Source: an uncultured Solibacteraceae bacterium (GTDB taxonomy: Bacteria; Acidobacteriota; Terriglobia; Bryobacterales; Bryobacteraceae). Taken from it: a stretch of 64,000 nt of DNA. Position 1 is the stretch's first letter, and every line of letters begins with the position of its first letter. The notes beneath the pieces are model-generated. The model saw nothing but the letters and a program-made list of their open reading frames with translations. It did no database searches and was not told the origin of the DNA. The stretch is taken from contig CAZVIK010000001.1 in assembly GCA_964627045.1 (NCBI GenBank), forward strand, positions 14,902 through 78,901, given 5' to 3'. This document shows positions 29,000-47,851 of the stretch, piece by piece. Both the position numbers and the translations under genes were made by a program.

Positions 29000-31969
29000 G
29001 TGTTCAAGTTTGGCGTGTCCATCATCGCTCTTCTGGTTAATACGGTCTGTGCGGAGGCGGCCTCCTACTACACGGCGCGTCCCGACGACCCCCAAGCCGT
29101 CTATCTGGCGCCGGGGGTGAATGGCGTCCGCGGCGACGGTGCGGCCGACGACAGCGACGCGATCCAAAAGGCGATCGACCAAGTGCAGGAAACCTCCGGC
29201 CTGGGCGTCGTCTTCCTGGCCGAAGGCCGTTACCGGCTCGGCAAGACGATCAATGTGTGGCCGGGCATCCGGGTCTTCGGATACGGCGAATCGCGGCCGG
29301 TACTGGTGCTGGCGCCCAACACCCCCGGCTACCAGGACAGGTCCCGTGAGAGATACATGGTGTTCTTCGCCGGGCGGCGGCCGGCGGCGGGAGGGCGCGG
29401 CGGACCCGCCGGCGCTCCAGGCGCGCCCGCGCGCGGCGGTGATTCCGACAGGCTTCCGGACTCCGGCGCAGGGACTTTCTACTCCGCGATGAGCAACATC
29501 GATCTTGAGATCGGCGACGGTAACCCGGGCGCGGTGGGCGTGCGTGGAACCTACGCCCAGCACTCGTTCCTGGCGCACATGGATTTCCGGATCGGGCAGG
29601 GCATCGCGGGGGTCCATGACACGGGCAACGTCATGGAGGACGTCCGTTTCTACGGCGGAGCCTACGGCATCTGGACCAGGACGCCGTCCCCGAGTTGGCA
29701 ATTCACGGCCGTGGACGCCTACTTCGAAGGACAGCGCGAAGCCGCCATTCGGGAGACGGCGGCCGGGCTGACGCTGGTGCGCCCGCACTTCCGCAAGGTC
29801 CCCACCGCGGTTTCCGTCGACTCCGGCGCCCACGACGAACTCTGGATCAAGGACGGACGCCTCGAAGAGATCTCCGGCCCGGCGATCGTCCTGGGTCTGG
29901 AGAACGTCCCGCGCAATGAGATCAACATGGAGAACGTGGTTTGCCGGTCGGTTCCCGTGTTTGCGTCCTTTCCGAGCGGCCGGAGGGTCGCCGGTCCCGC
30001 CGGGATGTACGAAGTCAAGGTCTTCTCGCACGGGTATCATTACGCCGATCTCGGCGCGGCCCCGGCGATGAGGGATATCTTCGAGGCGTCGGCGCTCGCG
30101 TCCATGCCGGCTCCCGCGCCCTCGGACCTGACGCCGCTGCCACCTATGAGCACTTGGGTGAACATACGGTCGCTTGGGGCCAAGGGCGATGGAAAGACCG
30201 ACGACACCGAGGTGTTCCGCAAGGCGCTGGCGGCCCACCGGGCCATCTACCTGCCGCAGGGCTATTACATCATCAGCGACACGTTGGTCTTGCGGCCCGA
30301 TACGGCGCTGATCGGCATGCACCCGAGCACCACGCAGATCGACTTGCTGGACCGCACGCCGGCCTTCCAAGGCGTGGACGGGCCCAAACCGATGATCGAA
30401 GCGCCCAAGGGCGGCGCCAACATCATGATCGGCCTCGGTGTCTACACCAACGGAATCAATCCGCGCGCCGTGGGCGTGAAGTGGATGTCCGGCAAGGACT
30501 CTCTGATGAACGACGTCCGCTTCCACGGCGGCCACGGGACTCCTCCGATCGGCGGCGGCCGGGCCAACCCCTACAACAACAACCGCACGGCCGACCCGGA
30601 CGCCAGCCGCCGCTGGGACAGCCAGTATCCCAGCCTGTGGGTCACCGACGGCGGCGGCGGAACGTTCTTTGACATCTGGACGCCGAGTTCCTTCGCGCAG
30701 GCCGGCATGCTGATCACAAACACCGCCACCGAAGGGCGAGTCTACGAGATGTCGAGCGAGCACCACGTCCGCTATGAGGTGCAGTTGCGCAACGTTTCCA
30801 ACTGGAAGTTCTACGCGCTTCAAACCGAGGAGGAGCGCGGCGAGGGCGGCTACGCGCTGCCCCTGGAGATCGATTCCTCCAGTAACATCACCGTGGCCAA
30901 TTTTCACATTTACCGGGTAATCAGCTCGTTCCAGCCGTTTCCGTGGGCCATCAAGGTTGTTAACTCTAAGGACATCCGCTTCCGGAACATCCACTGCTAC
31001 AGCAATAGCAAAGTCAGTTTCGATGCTGCGGTCTACGACCAAACCCACAACGTGGAGATCCGGCAGCGCGAGTTCGCGTGGCTTACCATTTCCGGGAACC
31101 CGCCCAAGCCGGCCGCGAAGAAGGCCACGCCGGTGGTGGCGGCCGGCGCCAAGGTGGAGAGATTGGCCGGCGGCTTCTTCAACATCTCGGGCGGCGCGGT
31201 GCATCCCTCGGGCGACCTTTTCTTCGTGGACGCCAAGTGGCATCGCATCTATCGATGGAGCGCCGCTGCACGGCGGCTGTCTACGGTGCGCGAAAGCCCT
31301 CTCGACCCGGTCAATCTGGCCATCGACAAGGCCGGAAATGTCATGGTCGTCTCTTACGAAGGGAAGGGAATCGTCTATGCGTTTAACCCGGACGCGGCGA
31401 ACCTCGACGTCAAGATTCTTCCCGCTGTTGCCGCCGCGCCGCGCCCAGGTATGACCCCCTACTATCCGGTGGGCGACTGGAGTTTCGACGGCGGTTCCGG
31501 GAGCATGGCTCCGGCGAAACGAGCCTGGCACTTCCTATCTCCGGATGGGACCACTTACATCGCTTCCGGCGAAGACTTTGCCTCGGGTGCACTAAGTTGG
31601 GGGATCAAGAGTGCCGACTTGGTGCGCGGCTTCGGCCTGGCGCCGGGGATTCCCGGCAAGCCGTTCTACTACACGACCGAGGCGCAGACCGTGACCGGTG
31701 TGGGCGCCATGGGTGAAGACGGGAATCTCCAGGACTTCAAGCCCTTCGTCCACCAGGGCGGCGACGGACTCGCCGTGGACAGCGAGGGCAACGTTTACCT
31801 GGCAGACGGCCAAATCAGCGTTTACAGCCCCTCTGGCAAGTTGATTGACGTGATCGAGGTCGCGGAGCGGCCCACACAACTGGTGTTCGGCGGCAAGGAT
31901 GGGCGGACGCTGTTCATCCTGGCGCGAAGCTCGCTCTACGCGGTCCGGACAAAAGCGAGGGGCCGGTAA
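29000..31969 (+). CDS. GH55-like pectate-lyase-superfamily beta-helix protein fused to an SMP-30/gluconolactonase-like beta-propeller, secreted
   Basis: The GTG at 29000 has AAGGAG 6 nt upstream and is followed by a signal peptide. There are two pectate_lyase_3-type starts (GDGAADDSDAIQKAID; GAKGDGKTDDTEVFRKAL), as in GH55. The C-terminal ~280 aa show SMP-30/LRE signatures (GGDGLAVDSEGNVYLAD, FGGKDGRTLFI). Confidence 0.8.
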   Translation: MFKFGVSIIALLVNTVCAEAASYYTARPDDPQAVYLAPGVNGVRGDGAADDSDAIQKAIDQVQETSGLGVVFLAEGRYRLGKTINVWPGIRVFGYGESRPVLVLAPNTPGYQDRSRERYMVFFAGRRPAAGGRGGPAGAPGAPARGGDSDRLPDSGAGTFYSAMSNIDLEIGDGNPGAVGVRGTYAQHSFLAHMDFRIGQGIAGVHDTGNVMEDVRFYGGAYGIWTRTPSPSWQFTAVDAYFEGQREAAIRETAAGLTLVRPHFRKVPTAVSVDSGAHDELWIKDGRLEEISGPAIVLGLENVPRNEINMENVVCRSVPVFASFPSGRRVAGPAGMYEVKVFSHGYHYADLGAAPAMRDIFEASALASMPAPAPSDLTPLPPMSTWVNIRSLGAKGDGKTDDTEVFRKALAAHRAIYLPQGYYIISDTLVLRPDTALIGMHPSTTQIDLLDRTPAFQGVDGPKPMIEAPKGGANIMIGLGVYTNGINPRAVGVKWMSGKDSLMNDVRFHGGHGTPPIGGGRANPYNNNRTADPDASRRWDSQYPSLWVTDGGGGTFFDIWTPSSFAQAGMLITNTATEGRVYEMSSEHHVRYEVQLRNVSNWKFYALQTEEERGEGGYALPLEIDSSSNITVANFHIYRVISSFQPFPWAIKVVNSKDIRFRNIHCYSNSKVSFDAAVYDQTHNVEIRQREFAWLTISGNPPKPAAKKATPVVAAGAKVERLAGGFFNISGGAVHPSGDLFFVDAKWHRIYRWSAAARRLSTVRESPLDPVNLAIDKAGNVMVVSYEGKGIVYAFNPDAANLDVKILPAVAAAPRPGMTPYYPVGDWSFDGGSGSMAPAKRAWHFLSPDGTTYIASGEDFASGALSWGIKSADLVRGFGLAPGIPGKPFYYTTEAQTVTGVGAMGEDGNLQDFKPFVHQGGDGLAVDSEGNVYLADGQISVYSPSGKLIDVIEVAERPTQLVFGGKDGRTLFILARSSLYAVRTKARGR

Positions 31970-32017
31970 ACACCGGCCCCTGGCCCATGATTTCTGCGCG
32001 CGCCACGGCGCGGGAAA

Positions 32018-33175
32018 TCAAAAACCGCTCGGACGCACCCAGAAGCTCTCTTGCCACACCCCCCCGGCGGGAATGCTCTGGAGGTCCTTGTACAAGCCCT
32101 TGTGCGCCAGGTTGGTGGCGTTGGTGATGCCGGCCATCGGCTCGAAACAGATGAAGTTGCGGTTCTGCATCATCCCGCCGCCCCCTGGGCCACGTCCCTG
32201 GGCGCCCTGTGGAGGTGCCCCCGCGGGTGGGCCGCCCGGCGCACCGGCCGGAGGTCCCCCCGGTCCGCGTCCGGCCGCTGGTGCCGCGCTCGGATTCGGC
32301 GCGTAGATGACCGAGGCGCGGTAATTGGGGCCATAGACGACATCCAGCCGCTGGCTTTTTCCCTTCACCGACATCACCGCGTTTCCCGTAGCATCGCGCA
32401 CCAGGTCGCCGAATACATGGTCCAGGTCGTAGTCCTTCAGTGCGATCGCCTGCGGGTTGGGGAAGAACCTCTCAATCGGCCGGGTCTCGCCCGTGGGGAC
32501 TTTTTCCGGAGCCAACAGCCACTCGGTCCGCGCGCCCACCGAAACCGTCCATTCATCGCGCGGCGAATCGGTCAACTGGAAGTAGGGGTGGTAGCCGACG
32601 GCCACGGGCATCGGTTCCGCGCTTAGGTTCTCGATACGCGTGCGTACCTCGAGCACGCCCCCTTGCAGGCGGTGTGTGATCTCGATGGTGTGTGCGAAGG
32701 GCCATTGCGCCATCCAGGAGGGCTGCCGCCAGAACTCCAGCCGGCAGGTGACCCACGCCGCCTGGCTGTCCGACTTCGCCTCCACCACCGTCCATTCGGA
32801 GGTCGAAGTCAGGAACCCGTGCATCGGAATGTTGCCGCGCACGTTGCCGAGGCCCATGTTGAAGGTGTATTTCTTGCCGTTGGCGTAGAACGCCTGTTCG
32901 TCCAGCCGGTTGGCCCACGGCGCCAGGAAAGGAGTGCCGGCCATCCCGGGGCGCTTCAGGAATTCCTCCAGCGACGCGGCCGGGAACCGGAACACGTTCT
33001 GCCCCTTCACCATCATTTCGATGGCCTGGTTGCCGGCGGCGGGCACAACTGTGACTGTGGTCTGCGCGGCGGCGTCGCGCAACCGCACGACGGCGCCTTC
33101 GCGCTCCACCGAGTATTGGCCCAGGGCGGGCAGCGTCAGCGCCAAGACAAGCATTGACAGAATGGCAAGCCGCAT
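32018..33175 (-). CDS. aldose 1-epimerase (galactose mutarotase-like) family protein, secreted
   Basis: ATG at 33175 with AAGGAGG SD, followed by a signal peptide. Carries mutarotase blocks (IPMHGF, VAVGYHPYFQL, FICFEPMAG). It carries a G/P-rich insertion before the FICFEP block. Confidence 0.8.
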   Translation of the reverse strand: MRLAILSMLVLALTLPALGQYSVEREGAVVRLRDAAAQTTVTVVPAAGNQAIEMMVKGQNVFRFPAASLEEFLKRPGMAGTPFLAPWANRLDEQAFYANGKKYTFNMGLGNVRGNIPMHGFLTSTSEWTVVEAKSDSQAAWVTCRLEFWRQPSWMAQWPFAHTIEITHRLQGGVLEVRTRIENLSAEPMPVAVGYHPYFQLTDSPRDEWTVSVGARTEWLLAPEKVPTGETRPIERFFPNPQAIALKDYDLDHVFGDLVRDATGNAVMSVKGKSQRLDVVYGPNYRASVIYAPNPSAAPAAGRGPGGPPAGAPGGPPAGAPPQGAQGRGPGGGGMMQNRNFICFEPMAGITNATNLAHKGLYKDLQSIPAGGVWQESFWVRPSGF

Positions 33176-33272
33176 GAAGATCCTCCTTACGACATTGTGA
33201 AGCTGTATCATACCCAACGCGGCGAACCGGCAACAAGTACTGCATCCGTTGCGCGAGATTGCGGGTATGCTC

Positions 33273-33281
33273 TGCTATAAT
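33273..33281 (+). promoter_or_regulatory. extended -10 promoter element (TGCTATAAT) upstream of the ABC operon
   Basis: Exact match to the extended -10 consensus TGnTATAAT, in the divergent intergenic region, 24 nt before the ATG at 33305 and 57 nt before the GTG at 33338. Confidence 0.4.
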
Positions 33282-33304
33282 CGCGTTTCTGAGATCCGGC
33301 TTCC

Positions 33305-34114
33305 ATGTGCGGGAGCGGCGGACGCGAGGGGGTGGCGGTGAGGTGGTGTTGCGCCGGTCTGGAAGTCAGCTTCCCCACGAACAACGGGCGCGTTGAGGCG
33401 ATCAAAGGACTGTCTTTGCACACCGGTTCCGGCGAGTTCTTGTCCGTCGTCGGCCCCAGCGGCTGCGGCAAGACGACGCTCCTGAAGACGCTCGCGGGGA
33501 TGATCCCGTATCAAGCCGGGACGATCGACCGGATCCCGTGCCCGGAAGACCGCAACGACCTGGCGCTGCTGGTGTACCAGGAGAACAGCCTGTTCCCTTG
33601 GATGACGGTTCTGGACAATGCCACCTTCGGGCTGCGGATGCGCGGCGTCGATCGCTCCGAACGCGAAGAGCGGGCCATGGTCTTGCTACGCCGGTTTGGC
33701 TTCCAGGGCCGCGAGCGAGTCTACCCAAGAGAACTGTCGCTCGGCATGAAGCAGCGGGTGGCGGTCATCCGTTGTTTCCTCAGCGATCCCTCGGCGATGT
33801 TGATGGACGAACCGTTCGCCGCCCTGGACTATCAGAACCGGCTGGCCTTGCACCGCGAGTTACTGGAGTTGTGGGAACAGGACCATAAGACGGTCGTCTT
33901 TGTGACCCACGACATCGAGGAGGCCATCGTCCTGAGCGACCGCATCGTCGTGCTTTCACGTCAACCGGCCAAGGTGGTGGCTGAGTTGAAGGTCCCCTTC
34001 GGGCGTCCGCGCGATCCCGCCGTCGTCCTGGAGGAGGAATTCCTGGTTTTGAAGCGGCGTGTTTGGGCGGCTCTCGGGCAACATGCCGACATCGGCGCCG
34101 TGGGGCGGGCATGA
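33305..34114 (+). CDS. ABC transporter ATP-binding protein (NitT/TauT-type)
   Basis: Has Walker A GPSGCGKTT, Q-loop, a variant signature LSLGMKQRV, Walker B LMDEPFAALD and H-loop VTHDIEEA. An alternative start is the GTG at 33338, 6 nt after GAGGGG. Confidence 0.9.
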   Translation: MCGSGGREGVAVRWCCAGLEVSFPTNNGRVEAIKGLSLHTGSGEFLSVVGPSGCGKTTLLKTLAGMIPYQAGTIDRIPCPEDRNDLALLVYQENSLFPWMTVLDNATFGLRMRGVDRSEREERAMVLLRRFGFQGRERVYPRELSLGMKQRVAVIRCFLSDPSAMLMDEPFAALDYQNRLALHRELLELWEQDHKTVVFVTHDIEEAIVLSDRIVVLSRQPAKVVAELKVPFGRPRDPAVVLEEEFLVLKRRVWAALGQHADIGAVGRA

Positions 34115-34887
34115 TTTCGCCGGCGCTTTGGAAGCGGATTGCGTTGGGCTTGTGGGCTCCGTTGCTCGTGCTCGCCTGCTGGCAATTTGCCGTGCGCTGG
34201 GGAATGCTGGATCCGTTGTTCTTTCCTCCCCCTTCGGAACTGGTGGGGGTCGGCCTGAAGATGGTAACCAGCGGCGAGTTGCCCGGGCATGTGCAGGCCA
34301 CTCTCGTCCGTTCCCTCGGCGGGTTTGCCATTGGAGCGATATCCGGCCTTTGCTTTGGGCTTGTCATGGGCGCGTCGCGGCGGCTGCGCCAGTCCGCCGA
34401 GCCACTGTTGTCGGCATTGTTCGCCACGCCGAAACTCAGCCTGTTCCCGATGCTGCTTCTCTTGTTGGGAGTGGGCGACGCCGCCAAGATCGCCTTGATC
34501 GCCCTGAGCACCTTTATTCTCGTCGCCTTCCACGCCCTTGATGCCGTGCTCAATGTCAACAAGGCCTACGCGGAGATGGCCGCCAATTATGGGGCGGGAA
34601 CCCGGGATCTGCTGCGCCACGTCTACCTGCCGGCGTGTTTGCCGCAGGTCTTCACGGGTTTGCGGCTGGCTCTGAGCCGTTCGTTGGTCTCGGCGATCTC
34701 CGTGGAATTAATCAGTGCGCAGGACGGTCTGGGCAGCCTCATCTGGATCTCCTGGCAGACTCTGGCGACCGAACGCCTCTACGTCGCCATCGTGACCTCG
34801 GCCGCGCTTGGGGTGCTGCTGCATCACGTACTACGCCGTCTGGAGGCCGCGTTGCTCCCCTGGAGAGGCCGCCATGCCGCCGCTTGA
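34111..34887 (+). CDS. ABC transporter permease (NitT/TauT-type, BPD_transp_1)
   Basis: ATGA overlap with the ATPase stop. 258 aa with about 6 TM segments and an EAA-like loop (NKAYAEMAANYGAGTRDLLRHVYLPA). Confidence 0.85.
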   Translation: MISPALWKRIALGLWAPLLVLACWQFAVRWGMLDPLFFPPPSELVGVGLKMVTSGELPGHVQATLVRSLGGFAIGAISGLCFGLVMGASRRLRQSAEPLLSALFATPKLSLFPMLLLLLGVGDAAKIALIALSTFILVAFHALDAVLNVNKAYAEMAANYGAGTRDLLRHVYLPACLPQVFTGLRLALSRSLVSAISVELISAQDGLGSLIWISWQTLATERLYVAIVTSAALGVLLHHVLRRLEAALLPWRGRHAAA

Positions 34888-36478
34888 CCGTGGCCTTTGG
34901 GAGAAGCTCGGCTACTACCGCCGCATGCTAACAGGCATGCGGGCGCTGCTGAAGAAGCCGCCGTATGCCGATCCGGAGGCGGTAATCCGCCACCAGTTTG
35001 CCCACCGGGAGGAGATCTGGCTTCGCCTGGTCGAACGTGTGGTGTTCGCCAATCCGGAGAACCCGTACCACCAGATGTTCCATTTGGCGGGTTGCACGCA
35101 CGGGGACCTGAGCGCCGCGGTATCCAAGGACGGCCTGGAATCGACTCTCGCCGCGCTGCATCGTGCGGGCGTGTATCTCACGCACGATGAGTTCAAGGGG
35201 CGGAAGCCAATCGTGCGCTCCAACCGCACCTTGGAAGCCAAGCCGGCATGGTACTTTAACCCACTCGTCAAGGGCGGCGGAATTGAGTCGACCAGCGGTG
35301 GGAGCCGCAGCCCCGGCACGCGGATCGGCGGCGCCATTCCCGCGCGCCTCTACGGGGAGGCTCGCCGCCGGCTGCGGTATCGGGAACTGGGGGTCGAGGA
35401 CTTCGAACAGGTGAGCGTCAAGGCCATCCTGCCCGCCGCCGACGGCCTGCTCGGATGCATCCTCGCATCGCGCGCCGGTATGCGGCAGGGGCCCTGGTTC
35501 TCCATTACCACCTCTTCGCTGGACGACGCGCATTACCGTTTCGCGACCAACTGCCTGGTGGCCCTGGCGCGCGCCCACGGGGAACAGGTGCCTTTTCCGG
35601 AGAGCCTGCCCTCCAACGATTATTCCCGCGTCTCCGCCTGGATTGCCGGACGCCGCCGCCAGGGGGTGCCCTCGGTGGTGTGCGCACACCCGAGTCCCGC
35701 CGCGCGTATAGCCGCGGCCGCGGCCGAAAACGGGCACGAGATCCAGGGAACCGTGTTCCTGGTTGGCGGCGAAGCGCTGACCGGCGCCCGGCGCCGGGTG
35801 ATCGAGTCGGCGGGCGCGAGCGTTTTCCCGAGCTATCCCATCAGCGAAGTTGGGGGCGTTGGCTCGGCCTGCCGCCAGATGACTTCGGGCAACTGCGTGC
35901 ACATCAGCGAGGATTCGATGGCCGTCATCAGCTACCGCCGGAAAGCGCCGCTGAGCGAGGCCGAGGTCGATTCGCTCCTGATGACCACGCTGGTGGAACA
36001 CGGCAACTGTGTGTTGATCAACGTTGAAATGGACGACTGCGGCGTGATTGAGCCGGCCACCTGCGATTGCCTCTACTCGCGGATCGGCTTCCGCCGCCGC
36101 ATCCGGGACATTGCCAGCTTCGGAAAACTTACCGGAATCGGCGTGACGCTGGTGGGGACCGACGTCATCCGGATTCTGGAAGAAACGCTCCCGTCGCGTT
36201 TTGGCGGAAGCGTAACCGATTATCAACTGGTGGAATGCGACGGCGGTGCACAGGCGCGGCTTCAACTCAGGGTCGGCCGGCGCGTGGCGGTCGCCTCGCT
36301 TGACGGCATCAAGGACTGTTTCCTTCGGGAGTTGCGCCAGTTCGAAGGCGGGGCGGGCGCCTCGCGGATCTGGCGCGACACCGGCGCGCTGGAGGTGGTC
36401 CACGAAGACCCGTTGGTCACCTTGCGCGGAAAGGTGCTCCCGTTACATCTCCTCGGGAGGCAGGAAAAGACGGCATGA
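34874..36478 (+). CDS. PaaK/coenzyme F390 synthetase-like adenylate-forming enzyme (putative, divergent)
   Basis: The ATG at 34874 overlaps the permease end by 14 nt. 534 aa with a degenerate ANL P-loop (STSGGSRSPGT) and a PaaK-like C-terminal subdomain pattern (SFGKLTGIGVTLVGTDVIRILEE). The coding call is strong; the functional call is tentative. Confidence 0.55.
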   Translation: MPPLDRGLWEKLGYYRRMLTGMRALLKKPPYADPEAVIRHQFAHREEIWLRLVERVVFANPENPYHQMFHLAGCTHGDLSAAVSKDGLESTLAALHRAGVYLTHDEFKGRKPIVRSNRTLEAKPAWYFNPLVKGGGIESTSGGSRSPGTRIGGAIPARLYGEARRRLRYRELGVEDFEQVSVKAILPAADGLLGCILASRAGMRQGPWFSITTSSLDDAHYRFATNCLVALARAHGEQVPFPESLPSNDYSRVSAWIAGRRRQGVPSVVCAHPSPAARIAAAAAENGHEIQGTVFLVGGEALTGARRRVIESAGASVFPSYPISEVGGVGSACRQMTSGNCVHISEDSMAVISYRRKAPLSEAEVDSLLMTTLVEHGNCVLINVEMDDCGVIEPATCDCLYSRIGFRRRIRDIASFGKLTGIGVTLVGTDVIRILEETLPSRFGGSVTDYQLVECDGGAQARLQLRVGRRVAVASLDGIKDCFLRELRQFEGGAGASRIWRDTGALEVVHEDPLVTLRGKVLPLHLLGRQEKTA

Positions 36479-37488
36479 ATCGTAGAACTGTGTTGTCCGC
36501 CGGAGCGGTATGGGCGGCGGTCGCCCTCGCCGGATGCGGGAGGAAGAAATCTACGTTGCGGCGGCTCCGGGTCGCCCTGGTTCCGAGGTTCACATTGGCC
36601 CCGCTCTACCTGGCCGACGAGAAGGGGTACTTCGCGGCAGAGGGAATTGAGATGGAGCGGCTTCCCTTGTCGCAGGCCAACGAGGTGCTGCCAATGCTGG
36701 CAGCGGGAAAGGTGGATGTCGCGTTCACCTCCGTCGGCCCGGCGCTGATTAACGCCGTAGTCCGCGGTGCGCCCATCCGCGTCGTCGCGGCGCGCGACAT
36801 GGTGGTCCCCGGATGTACCACCGGCGGCACGGTCTTTGCCAGCGCCAAGGCGTTCCCCGATGGATTGAAAGACCTCCGCCCGCTTCGGGGCAAGCGCGTC
36901 GTTGTGAACAACAGCACCGGGGTGATGTCTTTTTTCCTCGACGAGTTACTCAAAGCCTCGGGAATGACGCGCAAGGACATCAAGATCGTGGGCCTGAGGT
37001 CTATGGATGGTGTGGCCGCGCTGCTGGGGGGCAAGGTGGACGCTCTCGTGGCGGCCAATCTGGACAAGGACCTCTCGCTGGTCAGTGCCAAGATCGTGAG
37101 AGGCGTCAGCTTTGCGGAACTGTCCCCGAATTTCCAATACACCTTCGTGCTCTTCGGGAAGGCGCTCGTCGAAGGCAACCGCCGTGACGGCGTCGGCTTC
37201 CTAAGGGCGTATCTGCGCGGGTTGCGTGGGTTTCAGTCGGGCGAGAGTCCGAAGTCCCTGGAGGATCTGGCGCTGGCGGCGCACTCGGACCCCGGGGCGG
37301 TGCAGGAAGCCTGCCGCCAGGGATTCGCCGGCGATGGCATCGTGAATCCCGGCGACGTCGAGCGGCTGGTGAATTGGGCCGTGGCGGGCGGCTTCTGTGA
37401 GAAGGCGCCGCCTCTGGACCGGCTGTTGGACAACACCATGGTGCAGGAGGCGTACTTGTCTCTCCGGGAGGACGGGAAACGACGATGA
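36475..37488 (+). CDS. ABC transporter substrate-binding lipoprotein (NMT1/THI5-like, TauA/SsuA class)
   Basis: ATGA overlap with the preceding gene. Has a lipobox (VALAGCG) and the block LAPLYLADEKGYFAAEGIEMERLPLSQANEVLPMLAAGKVDVAF, typical of this SBP class. Confidence 0.8.
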   Translation: MNRRTVLSAGAVWAAVALAGCGRKKSTLRRLRVALVPRFTLAPLYLADEKGYFAAEGIEMERLPLSQANEVLPMLAAGKVDVAFTSVGPALINAVVRGAPIRVVAARDMVVPGCTTGGTVFASAKAFPDGLKDLRPLRGKRVVVNNSTGVMSFFLDELLKASGMTRKDIKIVGLRSMDGVAALLGGKVDALVAANLDKDLSLVSAKIVRGVSFAELSPNFQYTFVLFGKALVEGNRRDGVGFLRAYLRGLRGFQSGESPKSLEDLALAAHSDPGAVQEACRQGFAGDGIVNPGDVERLVNWAVAGGFCEKAPPLDRLLDNTMVQEAYLSLREDGKRR

Positions 37489-40400
37489 CGTGGCGCGGAA
37501 TCGTGTTGGCGTGTTTGGCGGTGGCGCCCCTGATGGCGCAGACCTCCGGGTCGGTCGAGGGGATCGTGCGGGACCCCAGCGGAGCCGTGGTCCCGGGCGC
37601 GCGGGTGATGGTGGTGGAGGAGGCCACCGCCGCGCCACGGCTGGCGGTAACGGATTCTGCCGGCCGCTTCCAGGTGCCGCGTCTTGCGCCGGGAACCTAC
37701 GAGATCACCGTCGGCCGCGCCGGGTTCCGCGACCAGTCTCAATCCGGCGTCCACGTCGAATCCGGCGCCTCGGCGCGGGCCGATTTCTCCCTCGTGCTCG
37801 AGGGATACCGCGACCAGGTGGCCGTCTCGGCGGAAGCCATATTGATCGACGCGACTCCGTCGGGGGCCGCCAGCTTTGTGCGCCAGCAGCAACTGGAGGA
37901 CCTGCCGGTGGCCGGCCGCGACGTCTTTGAACTGGCGGCGCAACAGCCTGGGGTTCTGTTCGTGAGGAACGCCGACCAAAGTGTGACGCGCGGGCAGGGG
38001 CCCAAGTTCTCGGTGCATGGCGTGCGCCCTTCGCAGAACGGTTTTTTGTTGGATGGGATTCCCATTAGCGATTCGGCCGGCTCGGTGGCGGCCAGCGCGG
38101 CTCAGGTGACCCTCGGCGTGGAGTCGATGCGCGAAGTGGTGATCGTCACCAGCCCGTTCAGCGCCGAGTATGGCCGTTCGGCGGGCGCGGTGTTCACGGC
38201 CGTAACCAAATCCGGTGGCAATCAGTGGCACGGCGCCGCCTATGAGTATTTCCGGAATGACGCCCTGGACGCCCGCAACTTCTTCGCTGACCCGGCCGAG
38301 GCGTCCCAGCCCTTCCGGCGCAACCAGTTCGGAGGGCTGCTCAGCGGGCCCCTTTACCGCAACCGCGCCTTTTTCCTCGTCAATTACGAGGCGATTCGGG
38401 AGACTCGCTCTTCCACGATGCGGCCCGTGGTCCCCGACGCTAATGCGAGAATCGGCCTGCTGCCGGCGGCAGGAGGAGCCAAGACCGTCGCCGTCGCTGC
38501 TGCGGTGAAGCCTTACCTGGATCTTTATCCGCTTCCTAACGGGAGGAACTTCGGGGACGGCACCGGGGAGTTCCTGCATCCCTCGGTGCGCGGTATGCGG
38601 GAGGACTACGTCAGTGGGAAGTTGGATCTCCTGCTGAGCCCAACCTTCCGTTTGGCCGGCCGCTACGCCTTCGACGATGCCGAGCAGAGCCAGCCGCAAC
38701 CGCTCGCCATCTGGAATTTCCTCACGGTGACTCAAAACCAGTTCGCCAGCGCCGAAATGCAGAACGTGTTGTCGCCCCGCACGGTCCACACCCTCCGTTC
38801 GGCCTTCAGCCGCGTGCCCGCGTCGGAGTTAGCCCGTCTGATGATCCAGGTTCCCGGCTCCCTTTCGTTCGTCCCCGGCCAGCCGCTTGGAGTAATCGCC
38901 GTCACCGGGCTCGCCGATATCGGGCCCTCGACCGTGCGGCAGCGCCCGCGGAGCCACATCCTGAACACCTATCAGGCGAATGACGATTTCGTGCACGTGC
39001 GCGGGCGCGACACGCTCAAGATCGGCGCCGGCTTGTACCGCATCCAATTCAACCAGGTAGCCGACTTCAGTGCCTGCGGGTACTACCAGTTCAACTCGCT
39101 CCAGGAGTTTTTGGCGGGTACCGCCCGCACGGCCGACGTCATGGTCCCCGGCTCGGATTCCCGCCGGGGCTGGCGCCAGACGCAGGGCTTTGTCTACTTC
39201 CAGCACGAGGTCCGCTGGCGGCCCGAGTTGAGCTTCGCTTACGGAATCCGCTTCGAATCGGCGAACACCCCGAGTGAGGTTAACGGGAAGGCATCCGCGC
39301 TGATCGACTACTTGGCCGACAGCGCCGTGACCGTCGGTGCGCCTCCCTATCGCAACCCTTCCGGCCGCACGCTGGCGCCGCGCGTGTCCGTCTCATGGGA
39401 CCCCTGGGGCAACGGACGCACAGTCGTCCGCGCCGGCGCCGGCATCTTCCAGGACCTGGTCGGCGTGCGCGACCTGATCGTCGCCGGCGGGCGCATGCCG
39501 CCGTTTTTCAGCCGCGTCTCGGTGACGCGCCCTACGTTCCCCAAACTCTTGGCGGCGATCCAGGGATCGGCGCCGTTAACCGCTCTGGATACCATCGACT
39601 ACAACTTGCAGCAACCCTACGTGGCGCAGTTCCAGCTATCCGTGGAACGGCAGATCGGCGGCGCCATGGTGGTGGGCGCCACCTACGCCGGCTCGCGCGG
39701 CGTCCACCTGATGAGTTTTGTCGGCAACGTCAACGCCACGCGGCCGCAATATCTTCCCGACGGTCGGATCTATCTCGCGGCGGACGCCGGACGGCTGAAT
39801 CCGGCGTTTTCGCAGATCGCCATGCGCCGAAGCCAGTTCGATTCCGTGCACCACGGTCTAACGTTGACCGTGCGCCGGCGGTGGCAGGGCGGGCTGGGAT
39901 TTCAGGCGAATTACCAGTGGGCCAAGTCGATCGACAACTCGTCTTCCACCATCACCAACGACTACTCCGGGACCGACTCGGTGCCGACCGTCTACGACTA
40001 CCGCGCCAATCGCGGCCCCTCGGACTTTGACCAGCGTGGAGTGCTTTCCGGGAACCTGTCCTGGGCGGTCCCCTCCGGACGCGGCGGCGGGTTGGCCCGT
40101 CTCTGGCACGGATGGGAGCTGCACGCGCTCGTGAGTGCGCAGACCGGCCTTCCGTTCGCACCCACCGTCGGATTTGACCGGGTGCGGCTGCTGACGACGC
40201 GGGTCGACTTGGGCCAGCGTCCCGACTACGCCGGATTCGGCCGGAAGGCCGTCCTCGGCGGGCCGGACCGGTATTTCGATCCCACCGTGTTCGCGTTGCC
40301 CGCGGCGGGTTACTTCGGAACCCTGGGGCGGAACACGCTGGTTGGGCCGGGCCTGTTCACAGTGGATGCCGCTCTCCATCGGACGCTCTTCCGCAACGAA

Positions 40401-40580
40401 CGCCAGAACCTGAGCCTCCGCGTCCAGGCGTTCAACCTGGCCAACCGCGCGAATTTCCGGCAGCCGTCCGGGCTCGCCCTGTTTGAGAGCACCGGAGAGC
40501 GGCTCGGGAGCGCCGGGAGGATCACAGAGACCGCCACCCCCTCCCGTCAACTGCAAATGGCCCTTCGATGGACGTTCTAG
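37485..40580 (+). CDS. TonB-dependent receptor-like outer-membrane barrel with N-terminal carboxypeptidase-regulatory-like domain
   Basis: ATGA overlap with the SBP gene. Has a signal peptide, a CarboxypepD_reg block (GIVRDPSGAVVPGARVMV...DSAGRFQVPRLAPGTYEITV), a plug-like region, a long beta-rich barrel and a terminal LRWTF. Confidence 0.85.
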   Translation: MTWRGIVLACLAVAPLMAQTSGSVEGIVRDPSGAVVPGARVMVVEEATAAPRLAVTDSAGRFQVPRLAPGTYEITVGRAGFRDQSQSGVHVESGASARADFSLVLEGYRDQVAVSAEAILIDATPSGAASFVRQQQLEDLPVAGRDVFELAAQQPGVLFVRNADQSVTRGQGPKFSVHGVRPSQNGFLLDGIPISDSAGSVAASAAQVTLGVESMREVVIVTSPFSAEYGRSAGAVFTAVTKSGGNQWHGAAYEYFRNDALDARNFFADPAEASQPFRRNQFGGLLSGPLYRNRAFFLVNYEAIRETRSSTMRPVVPDANARIGLLPAAGGAKTVAVAAAVKPYLDLYPLPNGRNFGDGTGEFLHPSVRGMREDYVSGKLDLLLSPTFRLAGRYAFDDAEQSQPQPLAIWNFLTVTQNQFASAEMQNVLSPRTVHTLRSAFSRVPASELARLMIQVPGSLSFVPGQPLGVIAVTGLADIGPSTVRQRPRSHILNTYQANDDFVHVRGRDTLKIGAGLYRIQFNQVADFSACGYYQFNSLQEFLAGTARTADVMVPGSDSRRGWRQTQGFVYFQHEVRWRPELSFAYGIRFESANTPSEVNGKASALIDYLADSAVTVGAPPYRNPSGRTLAPRVSVSWDPWGNGRTVVRAGAGIFQDLVGVRDLIVAGGRMPPFFSRVSVTRPTFPKLLAAIQGSAPLTALDTIDYNLQQPYVAQFQLSVERQIGGAMVVGATYAGSRGVHLMSFVGNVNATRPQYLPDGRIYLAADAGRLNPAFSQIAMRRSQFDSVHHGLTLTVRRRWQGGLGFQANYQWAKSIDNSSSTITNDYSGTDSVPTVYDYRANRGPSDFDQRGVLSGNLSWAVPSGRGGGLARLWHGWELHALVSAQTGLPFAPTVGFDRVRLLTTRVDLGQRPDYAGFGRKAVLGGPDRYFDPTVFALPAAGYFGTLGRNTLVGPGLFTVDAALHRTLFRNERQNLSLRVQAFNLANRANFRQPSGLALFESTGERLGSAGRITETATPSRQLQMALRWTF

Positions 40581-41380
40581 CGCGCAGCGCGGTGGAGGAA
40601 GGCGCCGGCGCTGGCGGGCCGGCCCGCTCCATCCCCGTGTTGACGTTTCACGCCATCGAGGATGCGCGCGACGTTACCGCCTTTCCTCCGGGGCTTTTTC
40701 GCGCCGGGCTGAAGGGCTTGGCGGCGAGGTCCCTGCGCGCGGAGCCGCTGGAATCGGTGGCGGCTCGCATCCGGCGCGGGGCGGGCTTCGCCGCGCGGAC
40801 TATGGCGCTCACTTTCGACGACGGCTACCGGTCGGTCTACACCGATGCGTTTCCGGTGTTGGCAAGCCTCGGCATGAGCGCGACTGTGTTTTTGTGCACG
40901 GGCCGCGATGCGGGCCCGCTCTCTGCCGGGCTTCCCTCCCTTGGCGGGCGGCCCATGCTGAGCTGGGGACAGATTCGCGAGATGCACCGCGCGGGGATCT
41001 CGTTCGGGGCTCACACGCTGACTCATCCGGACCTGACGCGGTTGGCTCCCCGCGAGATCGAGGTCGAAGTCCGCGAATCTCAGGCCCGGATTGAAGACGC
41101 CATTGGCGCGCCGGTGCGAGCGTTCGCCTACCCGTTCGGGCGTTTCAACCGCGCCTGCCTTGAGGTCGTCGGCCGGTACTTCGACGTAGCGTGTTCGGAC
41201 CGGCTCGGCTTGGTCCGCGCATCTTCGGATATCTTTGCGCTGCCGCGCGTGGACGCTTACTACCTGCGCTCGGAGCGGATGTTCGCGGGCGTGGCGTCGC
41301 GGTTTTTGGGTACTTACGTGGCGGCGCGCTCCTTGCCGCGGGGGTTGCGCCGCATGCTGATGAACTGCGTCGGAGGTTAG
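40568..41380 (+). CDS. polysaccharide deacetylase (NodB homology, CE4)
   Basis: Overlaps the barrel gene by 13 nt. Carries NodB motifs TFDDGYRS and AHTLTHPDL plus RAFAYPFG. Confidence 0.85.
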   Translation: MDVLARSAVEEGAGAGGPARSIPVLTFHAIEDARDVTAFPPGLFRAGLKGLAARSLRAEPLESVAARIRRGAGFAARTMALTFDDGYRSVYTDAFPVLASLGMSATVFLCTGRDAGPLSAGLPSLGGRPMLSWGQIREMHRAGISFGAHTLTHPDLTRLAPREIEVEVRESQARIEDAIGAPVRAFAYPFGRFNRACLEVVGRYFDVACSDRLGLVRASSDIFALPRVDAYYLRSERMFAGVASRFLGTYVAARSLPRGLRRMLMNCVGG

Positions 41381-41381
41381 C

Positions 41382-42635
41382 TTGGACCGCCCGCTTCGCT
41401 TCGCGATGGTCACGACATTCTACCCGCCATACTCGTTCGGCGGCGATGGGGTCTTCGTGAAGCGGTTGTCCCATGAGCTTGCGGCGCGCGGTCACCAGGT
41501 TACGGTGATCCACAACGCGGACGCCTTCCGCGTGCTTGCTGGGCGCGGCCCGGAAGGCGGATACGACGATCCCTCGAACGTCTCCGTGCAGGCCCTCCAA
41601 TCCCGGACTCCGGTGCTCAGCCTTCTGGCGGCCCACCAGACCGGGACTCCAGCCCTTTATGCGAGTGAACTGCGGCGGCTGCTCTCTCAAGACTTCGACG
41701 TCATCCACTTCCACAACGTCTCGCTGATGGGAGGCCCCGGCGTTCTGGCGCTGGGCGATGCGTTGAAGCTGTACACCATGCACGAGTACTGGCTGGTGTG
41801 CCCTACACACGGGCTGTTTCGCTTCGGCCGGACGCCATGTTCGAAAAGAATTTGTTCGCTGTGCACGCTATCCTACGGCCGGCCTCCCCAGCTCTGGCGC
41901 TACACAAACCGCCTGAACCATGCGGCAAGGCACGTCGACCTTTTCCTGGCGCCAAGCAGGTTTGTGGCGGCAAAACACGTTGAGCTCGGTCTAAAACGTC
42001 CGATCACCCACCTGCCGAACTTCACTCCCTCGCTGGAGAGCGCCATGCCGAGTGCCGCACCAAACCTCAGCGAGCCATACTTCCTTTTCGTTGGCCGCCT
42101 TGAGTGGCTGAAGGGCCTCCAGACGCTCATCCCGGTGTTTCGGCGATTCCAACGCGCTCAGTTGCGGATCGCCGGAGCCGGAAGCTGCGAGGCGCGCTTT
42201 CGAAGCCTGGCCCGAGATTGCCCGAACATCCAATTCCTTGGCTGGAAGAGCCGCGAGGAGCTTGCTCCTCTGCTTAGCGGGGCCATCGCTCTGATCTTCC
42301 CCTCGGTCAACTTCGAGACCTCCGGGCTGGTGACGTTGGAAGCCTTCAGCCAGGAGACACCGGTGCTCGGTCGCGACCTCGGTTCGCTTCCGGAGGCGAT
42401 CCGCGATAGTGGAGGCGGGTTTCAATACAGGAATGACGAAGAGCTGATTCATGCGATGGAGATGCTCTTGGACCGCCCTGGCCTCAGACGCTCCCTCGGC
42501 CAGAACGCGCGGGCTGCCTGGGCCCGGCTGTGGTCGCCCGAGGTCCACATGGAGCGTTACCTCGGATTGGTGAACGAACTCCTGGAACGCAGAACGGCCC
42601 ACCCGGGCGCCGCTGCGGGCGTCGCGTCTCCGTAG
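41382..42635 (+). CDS. glycosyltransferase family 4 (GT-B fold)
   Basis: The TTG at 41382 lies 1 nt after the CE4 stop, with GGAGG just upstream (alternative ATG at 41406). Has the N-terminal VTTFYPPYSFGGDG and a C-terminal EX7E motif (ETSGLVTLE). Confidence 0.85.
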   Translation: MDRPLRFAMVTTFYPPYSFGGDGVFVKRLSHELAARGHQVTVIHNADAFRVLAGRGPEGGYDDPSNVSVQALQSRTPVLSLLAAHQTGTPALYASELRRLLSQDFDVIHFHNVSLMGGPGVLALGDALKLYTMHEYWLVCPTHGLFRFGRTPCSKRICSLCTLSYGRPPQLWRYTNRLNHAARHVDLFLAPSRFVAAKHVELGLKRPITHLPNFTPSLESAMPSAAPNLSEPYFLFVGRLEWLKGLQTLIPVFRRFQRAQLRIAGAGSCEARFRSLARDCPNIQFLGWKSREELAPLLSGAIALIFPSVNFETSGLVTLEAFSQETPVLGRDLGSLPEAIRDSGGGFQYRNDEELIHAMEMLLDRPGLRRSLGQNARAAWARLWSPEVHMERYLGLVNELLERRTAHPGAAAGVASP

Positions 42636-42658
42636 GACGAAAGGACCCGCCCTTCGCC

Positions 42659-43459
42659 TCAGCCGGTCCGTTTCTGCGCCACCATGGCCCGCGTCGAACC
42701 CGTGGTGATTCCGCCGTCCACCAGCAGCGTCTGTCCCGTGATGTACTGGCAGGCGTCGGAGGCCAGGAACACGACCGCCCCCTCCAGGTCCGGCGGCTGA
42801 CCGTGACGCTTCAACGGAATGCGATCGACCAGGTAGGCCAGCCAGTCCGGATCTTCGTACAGGATGGCGTTCTGCGCGGTCTTGAACCACCCCGGCGCCA
42901 GGCAGTTTACCGTGATTCCATGCGGCCCCCAATCGTCGGCCAGGCTCATGGTCATCTGCTTGGTGCCGCCGCGGCTGGCGCAGTAGGCCGTGATGCCGGC
43001 GTAGCCGAACACGCTGGTCACCGAGCCGATGTTCACGATGCGGCCGTACTTCCGCGGGATCATCTTCTTCGCCACCGCCTGCGCCACGAAGAACGACCCG
43101 CGCAGGTTGGTGTCCAGCACCGTGTTCCAGTCCTCCCAGGTGACCTCCACGGCCGGCTTGCGCACGTTGCAGCCCGCGTTGTTGACCAGGATGTCGATCT
43201 TCCCGTAGTGCGCGTGCGCGGCCTCCACCATGCCCTGGATGCTCTCGTAGTCGCGCACGTTCAACTCAAGCGGCAGCGCCCTCCGGCCCATCTGCCGGAC
43301 CTCCTCGCAGAACGGTTCGAGCGACGCGAGCGTTCGGCTGGTCACGGCCAAGTCGGCTCCCGCTTTCGCCAGAGCCCTCGCCATGGCCTGCCCCAGACCG
43401 CGGCTGGCCCCAGTGACGATGGCGGCCTTCCCCGTCAGGTCGAATGGTGACGAACTCAA
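42659..43459 (-). CDS. SDR family oxidoreductase (KduD/gluconate 5-dehydrogenase-like)
   Basis: Has TGASRGLG cofactor motif, NNAG and the PG motif. The active-site Tyr segment reads YCASR instead of YxxSK. TTG start overlaps the DUF1080 stop (TTGA). Confidence 0.88.
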   Translation of the reverse strand: MSSSPFDLTGKAAIVTGASRGLGQAMARALAKAGADLAVTSRTLASLEPFCEEVRQMGRRALPLELNVRDYESIQGMVEAAHAHYGKIDILVNNAGCNVRKPAVEVTWEDWNTVLDTNLRGSFFVAQAVAKKMIPRKYGRIVNIGSVTSVFGYAGITAYCASRGGTKQMTMSLADDWGPHGITVNCLAPGWFKTAQNAILYEDPDWLAYLVDRIPLKRHGQPPDLEGAVVFLASDACQYITGQTLLVDGGITTGSTRAMVAQKRTG

Positions 43460-44298
43460 GATCCCTCCTGCCGGCCAATGCGCCGGATCCAGATGTTGCG
43501 AAACCGCACTGCCTGATTGTGGTCTTGCAGGCTGAGCGGTTCCTCCGCCCCGTGCGGCGTGTACTTCCCTACATTCCGCCAGACCGTCGTCCCGAGATAC
43601 GACCGGTGATCCTGCGCCAGCACGCCGTTGAAGAACAGCGTCACGGTCGCCGGCTTCACCACCTTGTCGCCCTCGAAACGCGGCGCTTCAAAGTAGATGT
43701 CGTAGACGTTCCACTCGCCCTGCGGGCGTGCGGGATTGACCATCGGCGGCCATACCCCATAGATCGAACCGGCCCCGCCGTCGGCGTAAGTCAGATTCGT
43801 GTGGCTCTCCAGGACCTGGATCTCGTAGCGCCCCATGAGTTCCACCCCGCTGTTCCCGCGGTCCTGACCCGTTCCCTGCGCCTCTTTGGGAACCATCCAC
43901 TCGATGTGCAGTTGGCAATCGCCGAACTTCTCTTTAGTGACCAGACGGCCCGTCTTGGGAACGATCTCGATGAAGCCGTTTTCCACCTTCCACCGCGGCT
44001 GCCCTGTTACGCCGCCTCTTCCCGCCGACACCCACTGGGAAAGGTCCTTCCCGTTGAACAGCACGATGGCGTCGGAGGGCGGCGCCGTGTAGGCCGGCGG
44101 ATGGCCCGGCGTCACCTTCACCGGCCGTGGTCGTTCGCTGTCGTGGACGCGCCATTTCTGGCCGGGAATGCGCGGCGTGTCGGTGTACCCGTCGACCGCG
44201 TCGCCCGCGAACTCCTGGGCGGGCTTGGGCGGCGCCGCGGCGGGTGGTTGCTGGGCCAGCAGCAGCGGCGCCAGCGCTGCAAGACAGAGCCGTTTCAT
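43456..44298 (-). CDS. DUF1080 (3-keto-disaccharide hydrolase-like) domain protein, secreted
   Basis: ATG at 44298 with GAGGTG SD, followed by a signal peptide (MKRLCLAALAPLLLAQQ). Carries DUF1080 blocks (WKVENGFIE, QLHIEWM, NSGVELMGRYEIQVLES, LQDHNQAVRFRNIWIR). Confidence 0.8.
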   Translation of the reverse strand: MKRLCLAALAPLLLAQQPPAAAPPKPAQEFAGDAVDGYTDTPRIPGQKWRVHDSERPRPVKVTPGHPPAYTAPPSDAIVLFNGKDLSQWVSAGRGGVTGQPRWKVENGFIEIVPKTGRLVTKEKFGDCQLHIEWMVPKEAQGTGQDRGNSGVELMGRYEIQVLESHTNLTYADGGAGSIYGVWPPMVNPARPQGEWNVYDIYFEAPRFEGDKVVKPATVTLFFNGVLAQDHRSYLGTTVWRNVGKYTPHGAEEPLSLQDHNQAVRFRNIWIRRIGRQEGS

Positions 44299-44461
44299 CT
44301 GTTCACCTCGTGGGTAGTCTATCGCAGTCGGACGCCGCCGGCGAGGACCTGACTCTGCCCCTTGACTTGGCCGTGCCATCCGCATACCCTGGATCTTTGC
44401 AATCGCTTGCGGCGCGGGGTCGGGCTTGATCCGGTTCCGGTCCGGCAAGCGGGAGACCTCT

Positions 44462-46177: not shown

Positions 46178-46183
46178 GCGGTT

Positions 46184-46417
46184 ATGACGGAACACAAGGA
46201 ATCAATCTCGATCTGGTATTTCGTGGGACTCCTCCTCACCGTGTACGGAGTCCTGATCATGGGCGCGGGTATCTACGACCTGGTGGCTGGCATTCAGCGC
46301 ACGACCGTTCTGGCCGAGTATCATGCCCCAATCTGGTGGGGAGCGTTCCTGCTGGCGCTCGGCGTAATCTATGTGTACTTCTTCTCGCCGCGCCGCCAAA
46401 AGGGTTCTGGGAATTGA
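46184..46417 (+). CDS. small membrane protein (2 predicted TM helices), hypothetical
   Basis: 77-aa ORF starting 7 nt after the symporter stop, with two hydrophobic helices (WYFVGLLLTVYGVLIMGAGI; WWGAFLLALGVIYVYFF). Confidence 0.55.
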   Translation: MTEHKESISIWYFVGLLLTVYGVLIMGAGIYDLVAGIQRTTVLAEYHAPIWWGAFLLALGVIYVYFFSPRRQKGSGN

Positions 46418-46430
46418 AGGAGAAAAGGAT

Positions 46431-47843: not shown

Positions 47844-47851
47844 AGGTTCGC

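Follow-up and report, generated by a model that had tools for sequence, protein, structure and literature searches.

What would a bacterium do with an operon that joins an ABC importer and an outer-membrane (OM) barrel to an adenylate-forming enzyme, a deacetylase and a glycosyltransferase? Such a block lies at 33305-42635 in a 64-kb stretch of contig CAZVIK010000001.1 (assembly GCA_964627045.1, from an uncultured Solibacteraceae bacterium), which was analysed over its whole length and is called the window in what follows. The seven genes, all on the + strand, encode in order the ATPase and permease of a NitT/TauT-type ABC importer, an ANL-like enzyme of PaaK-type fold, a lipoprotein substrate-binding protein (SBP), a TonB-dependent-type barrel, a CE4 de-N-acetylase and a GT4 glycosyltransferase.

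We regard it as about an even call that an organic acid is imported by this system, adenylated, and then N-linked to a glucosamine (GlcN) unit made by the GT4 and CE4 enzymes. Part of the evidence for this reading is the company kept by the ANL gene, with the importer in Bryobacterales and, for a sister clade, with importers and CE4-GT4 families together. Every statement on function below is drawn from gene context, from folds and from motifs. The component families are all known; it is the combination that is new, namely a transporter-coupled ANL clade that partners CE4-GT4, alongside an ATPase clade of altered signature. A first-pass annotation of the sequence had known of no characterised pathway of such composition, and this stands: no equivalog was matched above its cut-off, and literature searches found no described system with this combination.

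Operon structure

Genes were called across the window with GC3 guidance and direct inspection, which returned exactly the coordinates and junctions of the first-pass annotation (Table 1). Pfam and NCBIfam profile searches agree with six of its seven family calls. The genes are closely packed. ATGA overlaps join ATPase to permease (34111), ANL to SBP (36475) and SBP to barrel (37485); the permease and ANL genes overlap by 14 nt (34874-34887) and the barrel and CE4 genes by 13 nt (40568-40580); CE4 and GT4 are separated by the single nucleotide 41381, and GGAGG precedes the GT4 start codon. Two orthologous loci, L079 and L081, show the same translational overlaps.

Table 1. Coordinates of the seven-gene block, its putative promoter element and the genes that bound it
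Feature	Position	Strand	Evidence or remark
Aldose epimerase, upstream bound of block	32018-33217	-	
Extended -10 element TGCTATAAT, putative promoter	33273-33281	+	24 nt upstream of first ATG
ABC ATPase, NitT/TauT type	33305-34114	+	ABC_tran 9.7e-26
ABC importer permease, type I	34111-34887	+	BPD_transp_1 2.8e-21
ANL-like PaaK-fold adenylate-forming enzyme, 534 aa, predicted cytoplasmic	34874-36478	+	AlphaFold/Foldseek; no Pfam
Lipoprotein SBP, NMT1/SsuA class	36475-37488	+	NMT1 3.1e-22
TonB-dependent-type OM barrel	37485-40580	+	OMP_b-brl_4 7.3e-149, CarboxypepD_reg 2.3e-20, Plug 3.6e-9
CE4 (NodB-fold) de-N-acetylase, predicted cytoplasmic	40568-41380	+	Polysacc_deac_1 1.9e-27
GT4 (GT-B) glycosyltransferase, TTG start	41382-42635	+	Glycos_transf_1 1.1e-23, Glyco_transf_4 1.6e-16
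Short-chain dehydrogenase/reductase (SDR), downstream bound of block	42659-43459	-	

The extended -10 element previously noted upstream of the block is confirmed. TGCTATAAT is the sole match to TGNTATAAT in the 64 kb, where 0.05 matches are expected and at least one occurred in 5 of 100 shuffles, and it is conserved as CTCTG[C/T]TATAATC in two orthologous loci, L081 and L082, as are blocks of sequence upstream of it. A two-hexamer sigma-70 scan of 32900-43000 found nothing, with no -35 hexamer at TGCTATAAT. A terminator scan gave four terminator-like matches, below shuffle expectation; there is no terminator signal after GT4, where the 23-nt gap folds like its shuffles (z = -0.49). An Rfam scan of the whole window had a tRNA at 12092-12178 as its sole match and found no known riboswitch or leader. 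The block thus has the marks of a single operon, in that its genes share a strand, have no internal gaps, lie behind one promoter element and are bounded on both sides by opposite-strand genes, all of which points to co-transcription of the seven. Because the first 10-15 residues of the ATPase are unconserved in orthologs, its true start may be GTG 33332 or GTG 33338.

The adenylate-forming enzyme and its importer

For the ANL ORF no Pfam family was found at E<=0.01. Its best NCBIfam match is haloarchaeal PaaK (1.7e-7, residues 268-399, 30 bits against a cut-off of 700), and a profile of 26 homologs matches just two PaaK-type sequences in the PDB, over residues 259-397 only. An AlphaFold model built on the homolog alignment (pLDDT 86, pTM 0.87) places it at the level of fold: its top 11 Foldseek matches are all PaaK-type (E 1e-16 to 1e-14, 16-18% identity) and include BT_0428, PaaK1, PaaK2 and 2-hydroxyisobutyryl-CoA ligase, with a TM-score by target of up to 0.67. 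The modelled protein is a two-domain PaaK-type adenylate-forming fold, and at that level the PaaK/F390-like assignment made at first pass holds.

The recognizable motifs are THDEFKGRK, the P-loop-like TSGGSRSPGT, GGEALT, YPISEVG, EMDDCG, CDC, SFGKLTG and RGK. Motifs A5, A7 and A10 align to their PaaK counterparts, and Y321/E325 (A5), D388 (A7) and K520 (A10) are invariant across this clade and the sister clade described below (alignments of 26 and 28 sequences). The P-loop is Ser/Gly-rich but non-canonical, TSGGSRSPGT instead of SSGTTG (the sister clade has TGGTTGAGT), and SFGKLTG replaces the GRxDD of A8. An active adenylating enzyme is plausible from these residues; the protein lacks a signal peptide. 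With the PaaK family the ANL shares the two-domain fold, A5 Glu, A7 Asp, A10 Lys and the CxC before the hinge. It differs in being about 100 residues longer, in its SGGSRSxGT P-loop and SFGKLTG hinge, and in being encoded beside an SBP gene and not within a paa operon for catabolism; no Pfam or NCBIfam threshold is reached. Residues C333, H343, C397 and C399 (window 35870-36070) form an invariant Cys/His set (C...H...CxC) found also in the PaaK-type PDB sequences, probably a structural metal site of the subfamily.

At a 50% identity cut the family comprises 2493 clusters with E<=1e-3, and 876 with E<=1e-30. Of the listed members that carry a source name, nearly all go by ‘hypothetical protein’; three, in the sister clade, are labelled PaaK-like. 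No member has a Pfam domain. Searches of Pfam, NCBIfam and the literature did not place the ANL in any known transporter-accessory family or characterised pathway. For an unannotated clade of at least 876 clusters there is now a fold, a set of conserved catalytic residues and a consistent group of genomic partners. Two leads were set aside. P0365 (857 aa) was considered as an ANL-NMT1 fusion but keeps an internal lipoprotein signal peptide (MVATALLALLVATACG), which indicates read-through or a gene-calling artefact. Weak NCBIfam matches of the ANL and a neighbouring methyltransferase to DVU_1553/DVU_1556 were dropped, no literature having been found.

An ABC ATPase, a BPD_transp_1 permease and an NMT1/SsuA-class SBP give the importer the composition of a NitT/TauT system. 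It cannot be equated with TauABC, SsuABC, SaoAPX or NrtBCD, since every NCBIfam score falls under cut-off: the ATPase is closest to SaoA and TauB (SaoA 203 bits against 360), the permease resembles SaoP, SsuC and TauC (SsuC 118 bits against 347), and the SBP matches SsuA_fam (9e-18, 64 bits against 163.5). The SBP carries the lipobox LAGC (residues 18-21), and its remote PDB relatives are THI5 (5e-8) and SsuA (1e-5). A structure model from its sequence alone reached pLDDT 38, too low for use. The barrel has the features of a TonB-dependent transporter: an N-terminal signal peptide (by inspection), a CarboxypepD_reg domain, a Plug domain matching the FepA plug (3e-8) and a large beta-barrel of the 22-strand class; DQVAVSA at residues 110-116 is TonB-box-like.

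The first-pass annotation had remarked on the ATPase signature motif, LSLGM (residues 144-148, 33734-33748), and the deviation proves real and family-wide. Walker A (GPSGCGKT) and Walker B (LMDEP) are normal, whereas the signature is not the canonical LSGGQ or LSGGM. A non-Gly third position, LS[LAVMS]GM, occurs in 32 of 35 ATPases of a first set (L002-L078) and in 15 of the 16 of a sister-clade set (L094-L167); two of the three first-set exceptions are unlinked - strand ATPases. The LSxGM signature sets apart an ATPase clade that accompanies the ANL.

The importer resembles the three-tier TonB systems (FecA-FecBCDE, BtuB-BtuFCD) and the NitT/TauT importers (TauABC, SsuABC) in its plugged barrel, lipoprotein SBP, BPD_transp_1 permease and ABC ATPase. 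Unlike these, the window operon encodes a cytoplasmic adenylating enzyme translationally coupled to the SBP, its ATPase belongs to the LS[LAVMS]GM rather than the LSGG[QM] type, and its barrel has an N-terminal CarboxypepD_reg domain. An ABC or TTT importer (the latter in the sister clade) hard-wired to a cytoplasmic adenylating enzyme is a new operon design.

The arrangement is conserved in related genomes. ANL homologs of 43-62% identity were found in 78 genome loci, mostly of metagenome-assembled genomes (MAGs) assigned to Bryobacterales, Solibacteraceae or Terriglobia, and each locus was scanned by tblastn with the window proteins. Transport genes adjoin the ANL gene in 63 of the 78. The SBP gene is immediately 3' of it in 53, and an NMT1 SBP is so placed in 23 of 49 metagenome cases. 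The permease-ANL-SBP core, which the first-pass annotation had proposed to look for in other genomes, is conserved. The full window order, ATPase-permease-ANL-SBP-barrel, occurs in 14 loci. An alternative full layout, ATPase-ANL-SBP-permease-barrel, occurs in eight, and the same without the barrel in eight more. ANL-SBP-barrel triads stand alone in eight loci and form tandem arrays in four (L001, L002, L003 and L017), the arrays, from two Solibacteraceae MAGs, sharing a single ATPase/permease. One MAG has at least nine ANL genes on seven contigs. Pairwise identities of ANL and barrel rise and fall together (r=0.83, a value attained by none of 999 Mantel permutations).

Some loci differ in their transport genes. 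In L064, L068 and L072 (also L066 and L025) the ANL stands with a barrel and an Nramp-like transporter, without SBP or ABC genes, and two lone ANL genes (L043, L052) are divergent from a DASS/CitMHS-type carrier. Since an Nramp-like or DASS carrier stands in for the ABC system in these few loci, the ANL can evidently exchange its inner-membrane partner. A 5'-nucleotidase/UshA-like gene with a signal peptide lies between triads in L001 and L017.

The CE4-GT4 pair and the sister clade

Both glycan-modifying enzymes look active, their catalytic motifs being intact. The CE4 protein has the full Asp-His-His motif set (TFDDG, HTLTH, R-x-F-A-YPFG) and no signal peptide; its best PDB match is 6dq3 (2.4e-16), and the equivalogs PgaB, NodB and HfsH all score under NCBIfam cut-off. 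The GT4 protein is a two-domain GT-B enzyme with the EX7E motif ETSGLVTLE at residues 312-320, and its NCBIfam matches to BshA (8e-15, 55 bits against 274) and MshA (6e-11, 42 against 463) are far under cut-offs. A Cys-rich insertion in its N-terminal domain, CPTH-x10-C-x4-C-x2-C (residues 140-161, 41799-41864), may be a metal-binding knuckle.

Within Bryobacterales the pair is joined to the five-gene import module only in the window and in its closest relative, L081 (77% identity), which has the same upstream epimerase and a CE4 gene with the same 13-nt barrel overlap. In L079 (74% ANL identity) the module ends after the barrel, with no CE4-GT4, and no clear CE4 or GT4 of these families lies beside the module in any of the 78 loci. 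A syntenic relative, L082 (GCA_030153585.1, 4700-7500), keeps the promoter and has lost the import genes; it retains barrel residues 439-606 and 995-1031, an intact CE4 and a GT4 split into two high-scoring segment pairs; the locus is a copy in decay, or else the MAG is misassembled there.

The window CE4 belongs to a large cross-phylum family. In L083, L084 and L087 its members lie in polysaccharide clusters that also hold Wzx-type flippases, directly beside a GT4 at least 52% identical to that of the window. Compared with the cross-phylum cassette, the window CE4 is 54% identical and the window GT4 52% over its full length. In other phyla the pair also occurs without the import module, within clusters for polysaccharides or glycolipids.

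One CE4-centred locus, L085, ties the two parts together. It encodes a 534-aa protein without Pfam match that is homologous to the ANL over its full length (36% identity, E 5e-97). Its gene overlaps TctC by 4 nt and is followed by TctA, TctB, a flippase and a GT4, with CE4, GT2 and FAD oxidoreductase genes divergently transcribed. The sister ANL clade that it represents is even larger: it comprises 2481 clusters at E<=1e-10, and the source names among them include Acidobacteria, Blastocatellia, Deltaproteobacteria and Latescibacterota. A metagenome scan yielded 80 more loci, and counts were made over all 81 and over the 28 with at least 5 kb of flank. Among the 81, NMT1-SBP/ABC genes accompany the ANL in 33, TctABC in six and CE4 and/or GT4 in 18, with importer plus CE4/GT4 in 10. 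Of the 28 well-flanked loci, 16 have an importer, 14 have CE4 and/or GT4, 18 have any gene of a glycan set (CE4, GT4, GT2, FAD oxidoreductase, flippase), and 22 have importer or glycan set. The CE4 and GT4 proteins of these loci are 52-72% identical to the cassette.

Gene order is fluid: CE4-ANL-GT4 (L142, L169), ANL-CE4-GT4 (L151), ANL-TctCAB-CE4-GT4 (L092), CE4-GT4-ANL-SBP (L132) and CE4-GT4-barrel-ANL-TctC (L135) are all found, and L110, L137 and L157 likewise link the ANL with the CE4/GT4 families. Beside the ANL, TctC-TctA-TctB replaces the NMT1 SBP system in L085, L092, L101 and L159. Proximity that is kept despite rearrangement and replacement of the transporter class is a classical signature of functional coupling. 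The CE4-centred contexts and the metagenome scan overturn an interpretation we had entertained, that CE4-GT4 is a lineage-specific passenger of the module. The seven-gene unit of the first-pass annotation accordingly survives in part: it is divisible, the five-gene module being almost always without CE4-GT4 in Bryobacterales, and the partnership itself recurs in the sister clade.

CE4-family loci without this ANL usually hold another carboxylate-amine ligase, either ATP-grasp (L083, L086) or an AMP-binding enzyme with peptidyl carrier protein, condensation or nonribosomal peptide synthetase (NRPS) genes (L086, L088 and the P0180 locus). An alternative ligase of this kind beside CE4 is expected if de-N-acetylation is followed by re-N-acylation. 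L092 also has lipid-A/PIM-type acyltransferases and a FadD-like ligase, which together suggest acylated glycolipid products.

A trio of other genes recurs with the ANL/CE4/GT4 set, namely a GT2, an FAD oxidoreductase of the PRK07208 type whose C-terminus is a holin_4-like membrane segment, and a separate small holin_4-like protein of about 110 aa (L085, L087, L092, L096-L098, L111, L141, L142, L152, L153, L157 and L169).

Proposed pathway and alternatives

The architecture, folds, motifs and linkage described above are observed; which way transport runs, what class of compound is carried, what serves as acceptor and that an amide is formed we infer from them. The substrate, an organic anion and in all likelihood a carboxylic acid, would be captured at the cell surface by the TonB-dependent barrel, passed to the lipoprotein SBP and pumped inward by the NitT/TauT-type permease and ATPase. 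In the cytoplasm the PaaK-fold enzyme would adenylate it. In parallel GT4 would transfer an N-acetyl-hexosamine to a lipid or glycan carrier as acceptor, and CE4 would strip the acetyl group to expose an amine. The activated acyl group would then be joined to the amine by an N-linkage, with the ANL itself as amide synthetase or with CoA as intermediate, to give an N-acylated amino-sugar conjugate that probably belongs to the cell envelope. The TTT, NitT/TauT and DASS families carry small organic anions, and the TctABC and DASS alternatives make carboxylates the likely cargo.

A broader proposal is that the pathway is widespread, a new PaaK-fold clade, encoded just ahead of an SBP gene, adenylating organic acids that TonB-dependent/ABC or TctABC importers capture from the environment and N-linking them directly to de-N-acetylated amino sugars made by CE4-GT4 pairs, with the triad duplications of Bryobacterales serving as a combinatorial surface-decoration repertoire or a harvesting array. 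This we put forward tentatively, as something that may well prove wrong. If the import-and-graft model is right, abundant soil bacteria, of the Acidobacteriota and other groups, import organic acids also to acylate envelope amino sugars and not just as food.

The proposed logic of glycosylation, de-N-acetylation and re-acylation is that of Nod factor (NodC-NodB-NodA), mycothiol (MshA-MshB-MshC) and bacillithiol (BshA-BshB-BshC) synthesis; CE4 has the NodB fold, as in the Nod factor pathway, and GT4 is of the same CAZy family as MshA and BshA. In contrast to these pathways, no equivalog is matched, the ligase is a PaaK-type ANL, and the acyl group is apparently imported through a dedicated trans-envelope transporter rather than made by the cell. 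Import, nucleotide activation and attachment to the envelope are known for choline, taken up and used in Lic-dependent decoration of pneumococcal teichoic acids, and for sialic acid, taken up by Haemophilus and added to its lipooligosaccharide. Those systems use wholly different protein families; here activation would be as acyl-adenylate and attachment by an amide to a de-N-acetylated hexosamine. Vectorial acylation (FadL/FadD; mce1 with fadD5) pairs envelope uptake with an acid-trapping ANL, and mce1 has an ANL gene within a transporter operon. It differs in its FadL or Mce transporters, its long-chain FadD-type ANL and its products, which feed beta-oxidation or lipid synthesis and not glycan modification.

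The first-pass annotation had offered two functions, envelope or glycoconjugate modification and catabolic uptake of an acetylated glycan fragment. The former is favoured and the latter is not, because the neighbouring genes are biosynthetic and the CE4 protein lacks a signal peptide and occurs in biosynthetic clusters. A census of 126 nearest neighbours of the Bryobacterales modules counted 13 class I methyltransferases, seven GT2 enzymes, seven PMT_2 GT-C enzymes, four MurF-like ligases and two flippases. Many of the neighbouring GT2 enzymes have C-terminal transmembrane pairs, like polyprenyl-phosphate glycosyltransferases. The top 25 families of the 126 neighbours include no beta-oxidation, ring-cleavage or regulator families.

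Several observations weigh against an import-and-graft pathway. CE4 and GT4 are missing within 10 kb of most Bryobacterales modules; ANL paralogy and the tandem ANL-SBP-barrel arrays look more like nutrient harvesting than decoration; the solved relatives of the ANL are CoA ligases; its P-loop departs from SSGTTG; the window holds no flippase, acyltransferase or carrier protein; and L082 lost the import module yet kept CE4, so that the two parts are separable. Much of this would suit a catabolic system, a module like a polysaccharide utilization locus that performs ‘vectorial activation’, trapping scarce organic acids (aromatic ones, for example) as acyl-CoA to be degraded elsewhere, with CE4-GT4 an unrelated passenger sharing the promoter. 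The expansion of paralogs and the tandem triads on one ATPase/permease fit harvesting better than they fit grafting; ANL and barrel co-vary as matched specificity units would; the PaaK-type relatives are themselves CoA ligases; L079 has the module without CE4-GT4; the window flanks are sugar-catabolic; and a TonB-dependent receptor imports a lignin-derived aromatic acid (PMC6874591). We nevertheless think harvesting doubtful, though it is the rival to be taken most seriously: hydratases, thiolases, dioxygenases and regulators are absent from the 25 commonest neighbour families, which are glycan-building, the ANL clade is found repeatedly inside CE4-GT4 cassettes, and the 13-nt barrel/CE4 overlap is kept in L081. 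An uptake system for siderophores or other metallophores, prompted by the TonB-dependent barrel, the divergent ‘biosynthesis’ genes and the occasional Nramp-like neighbours, was rejected as the main reading, as the SBP is of the wrong class, no NRPS or NRPS-independent siderophore synthetase genes occur in module loci and there is no Fur-type signal.

The other alternatives change the product, the chemistry or the premise. A soluble product, a cytoplasmic low-molecular-weight N-acyl-glucosaminide resembling mycothiol or bacillithiol for which the importer supplies acid or aglycone, would account for the succession of GT4, deacetylase and ATP-dependent ligase, which mirrors MshA/MshB/MshC and BshA/BshB/BshC, as well as for the presence of BshA and MshA among the best NCBIfam matches of the GT4 proteins, the lack of any flippase or exporter in the window and the lack of signal peptides on CE4 and ANL. 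It seems unlikely all the same, given how far those BshA and MshA bit scores lie below cut-off, a deacetylase of CE4 rather than LmbE type, a ligase that is PaaK-fold and not CysRS-like, and the Polysacc_synt flippases, lipid-A-type acyltransferases, GT2 and GT-C enzymes that accompany the set elsewhere and indicate membrane or envelope products. The polarity could also be reversed, an imported amine or taurine-like aminosulfonate amidating the carboxyl group of a glycan sugar acid adenylated by the ANL. Amide-linked taurine on uronic acids occurs in some capsules, and the closest named relatives of the transporter are taurine and sulfonate systems; yet the recurrent partner is a de-N-acetylase, which yields an amine and not a carboxylate, the operon has no UDP-sugar dehydrogenase, and the TctABC and DASS alternatives indicate carboxylates, so that we find this improbable, somewhat more so than a soluble product. 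That seven packed genes without shared function were brought together by chance is very unlikely: import module and cassette are each found alone, but the overlaps are conserved in orthologs, as is the single promoter element, and the same families occur together, in differing orders, in many unrelated metagenomic loci. An imported acid grafted onto an amino sugar remains the reading that we prefer.

MurF-like ligases without the N-terminal Mur domain adjoin the ANL gene in L020 (11577-14158), L024, L044, L070 (115-3091) and L078, sometimes as tandem duplicates, and are a second type of amide-forming ligase near ANL genes. The flanks of the operon in the window (28001-33217 and 42659-49420) carry sugar-catabolic genes. 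Besides the aldose epimerase and the SDR, they encode a GntR/FCD regulator, a 1001-aa protein combining a pectate-lyase fold with SMP-30/gluconolactonase, a 3-keto-disaccharide hydrolase, a sodium:solute symporter, a fucose-isomerase-like protein and an FGGY kinase. L082 shows the flank genes in the same order as the window.

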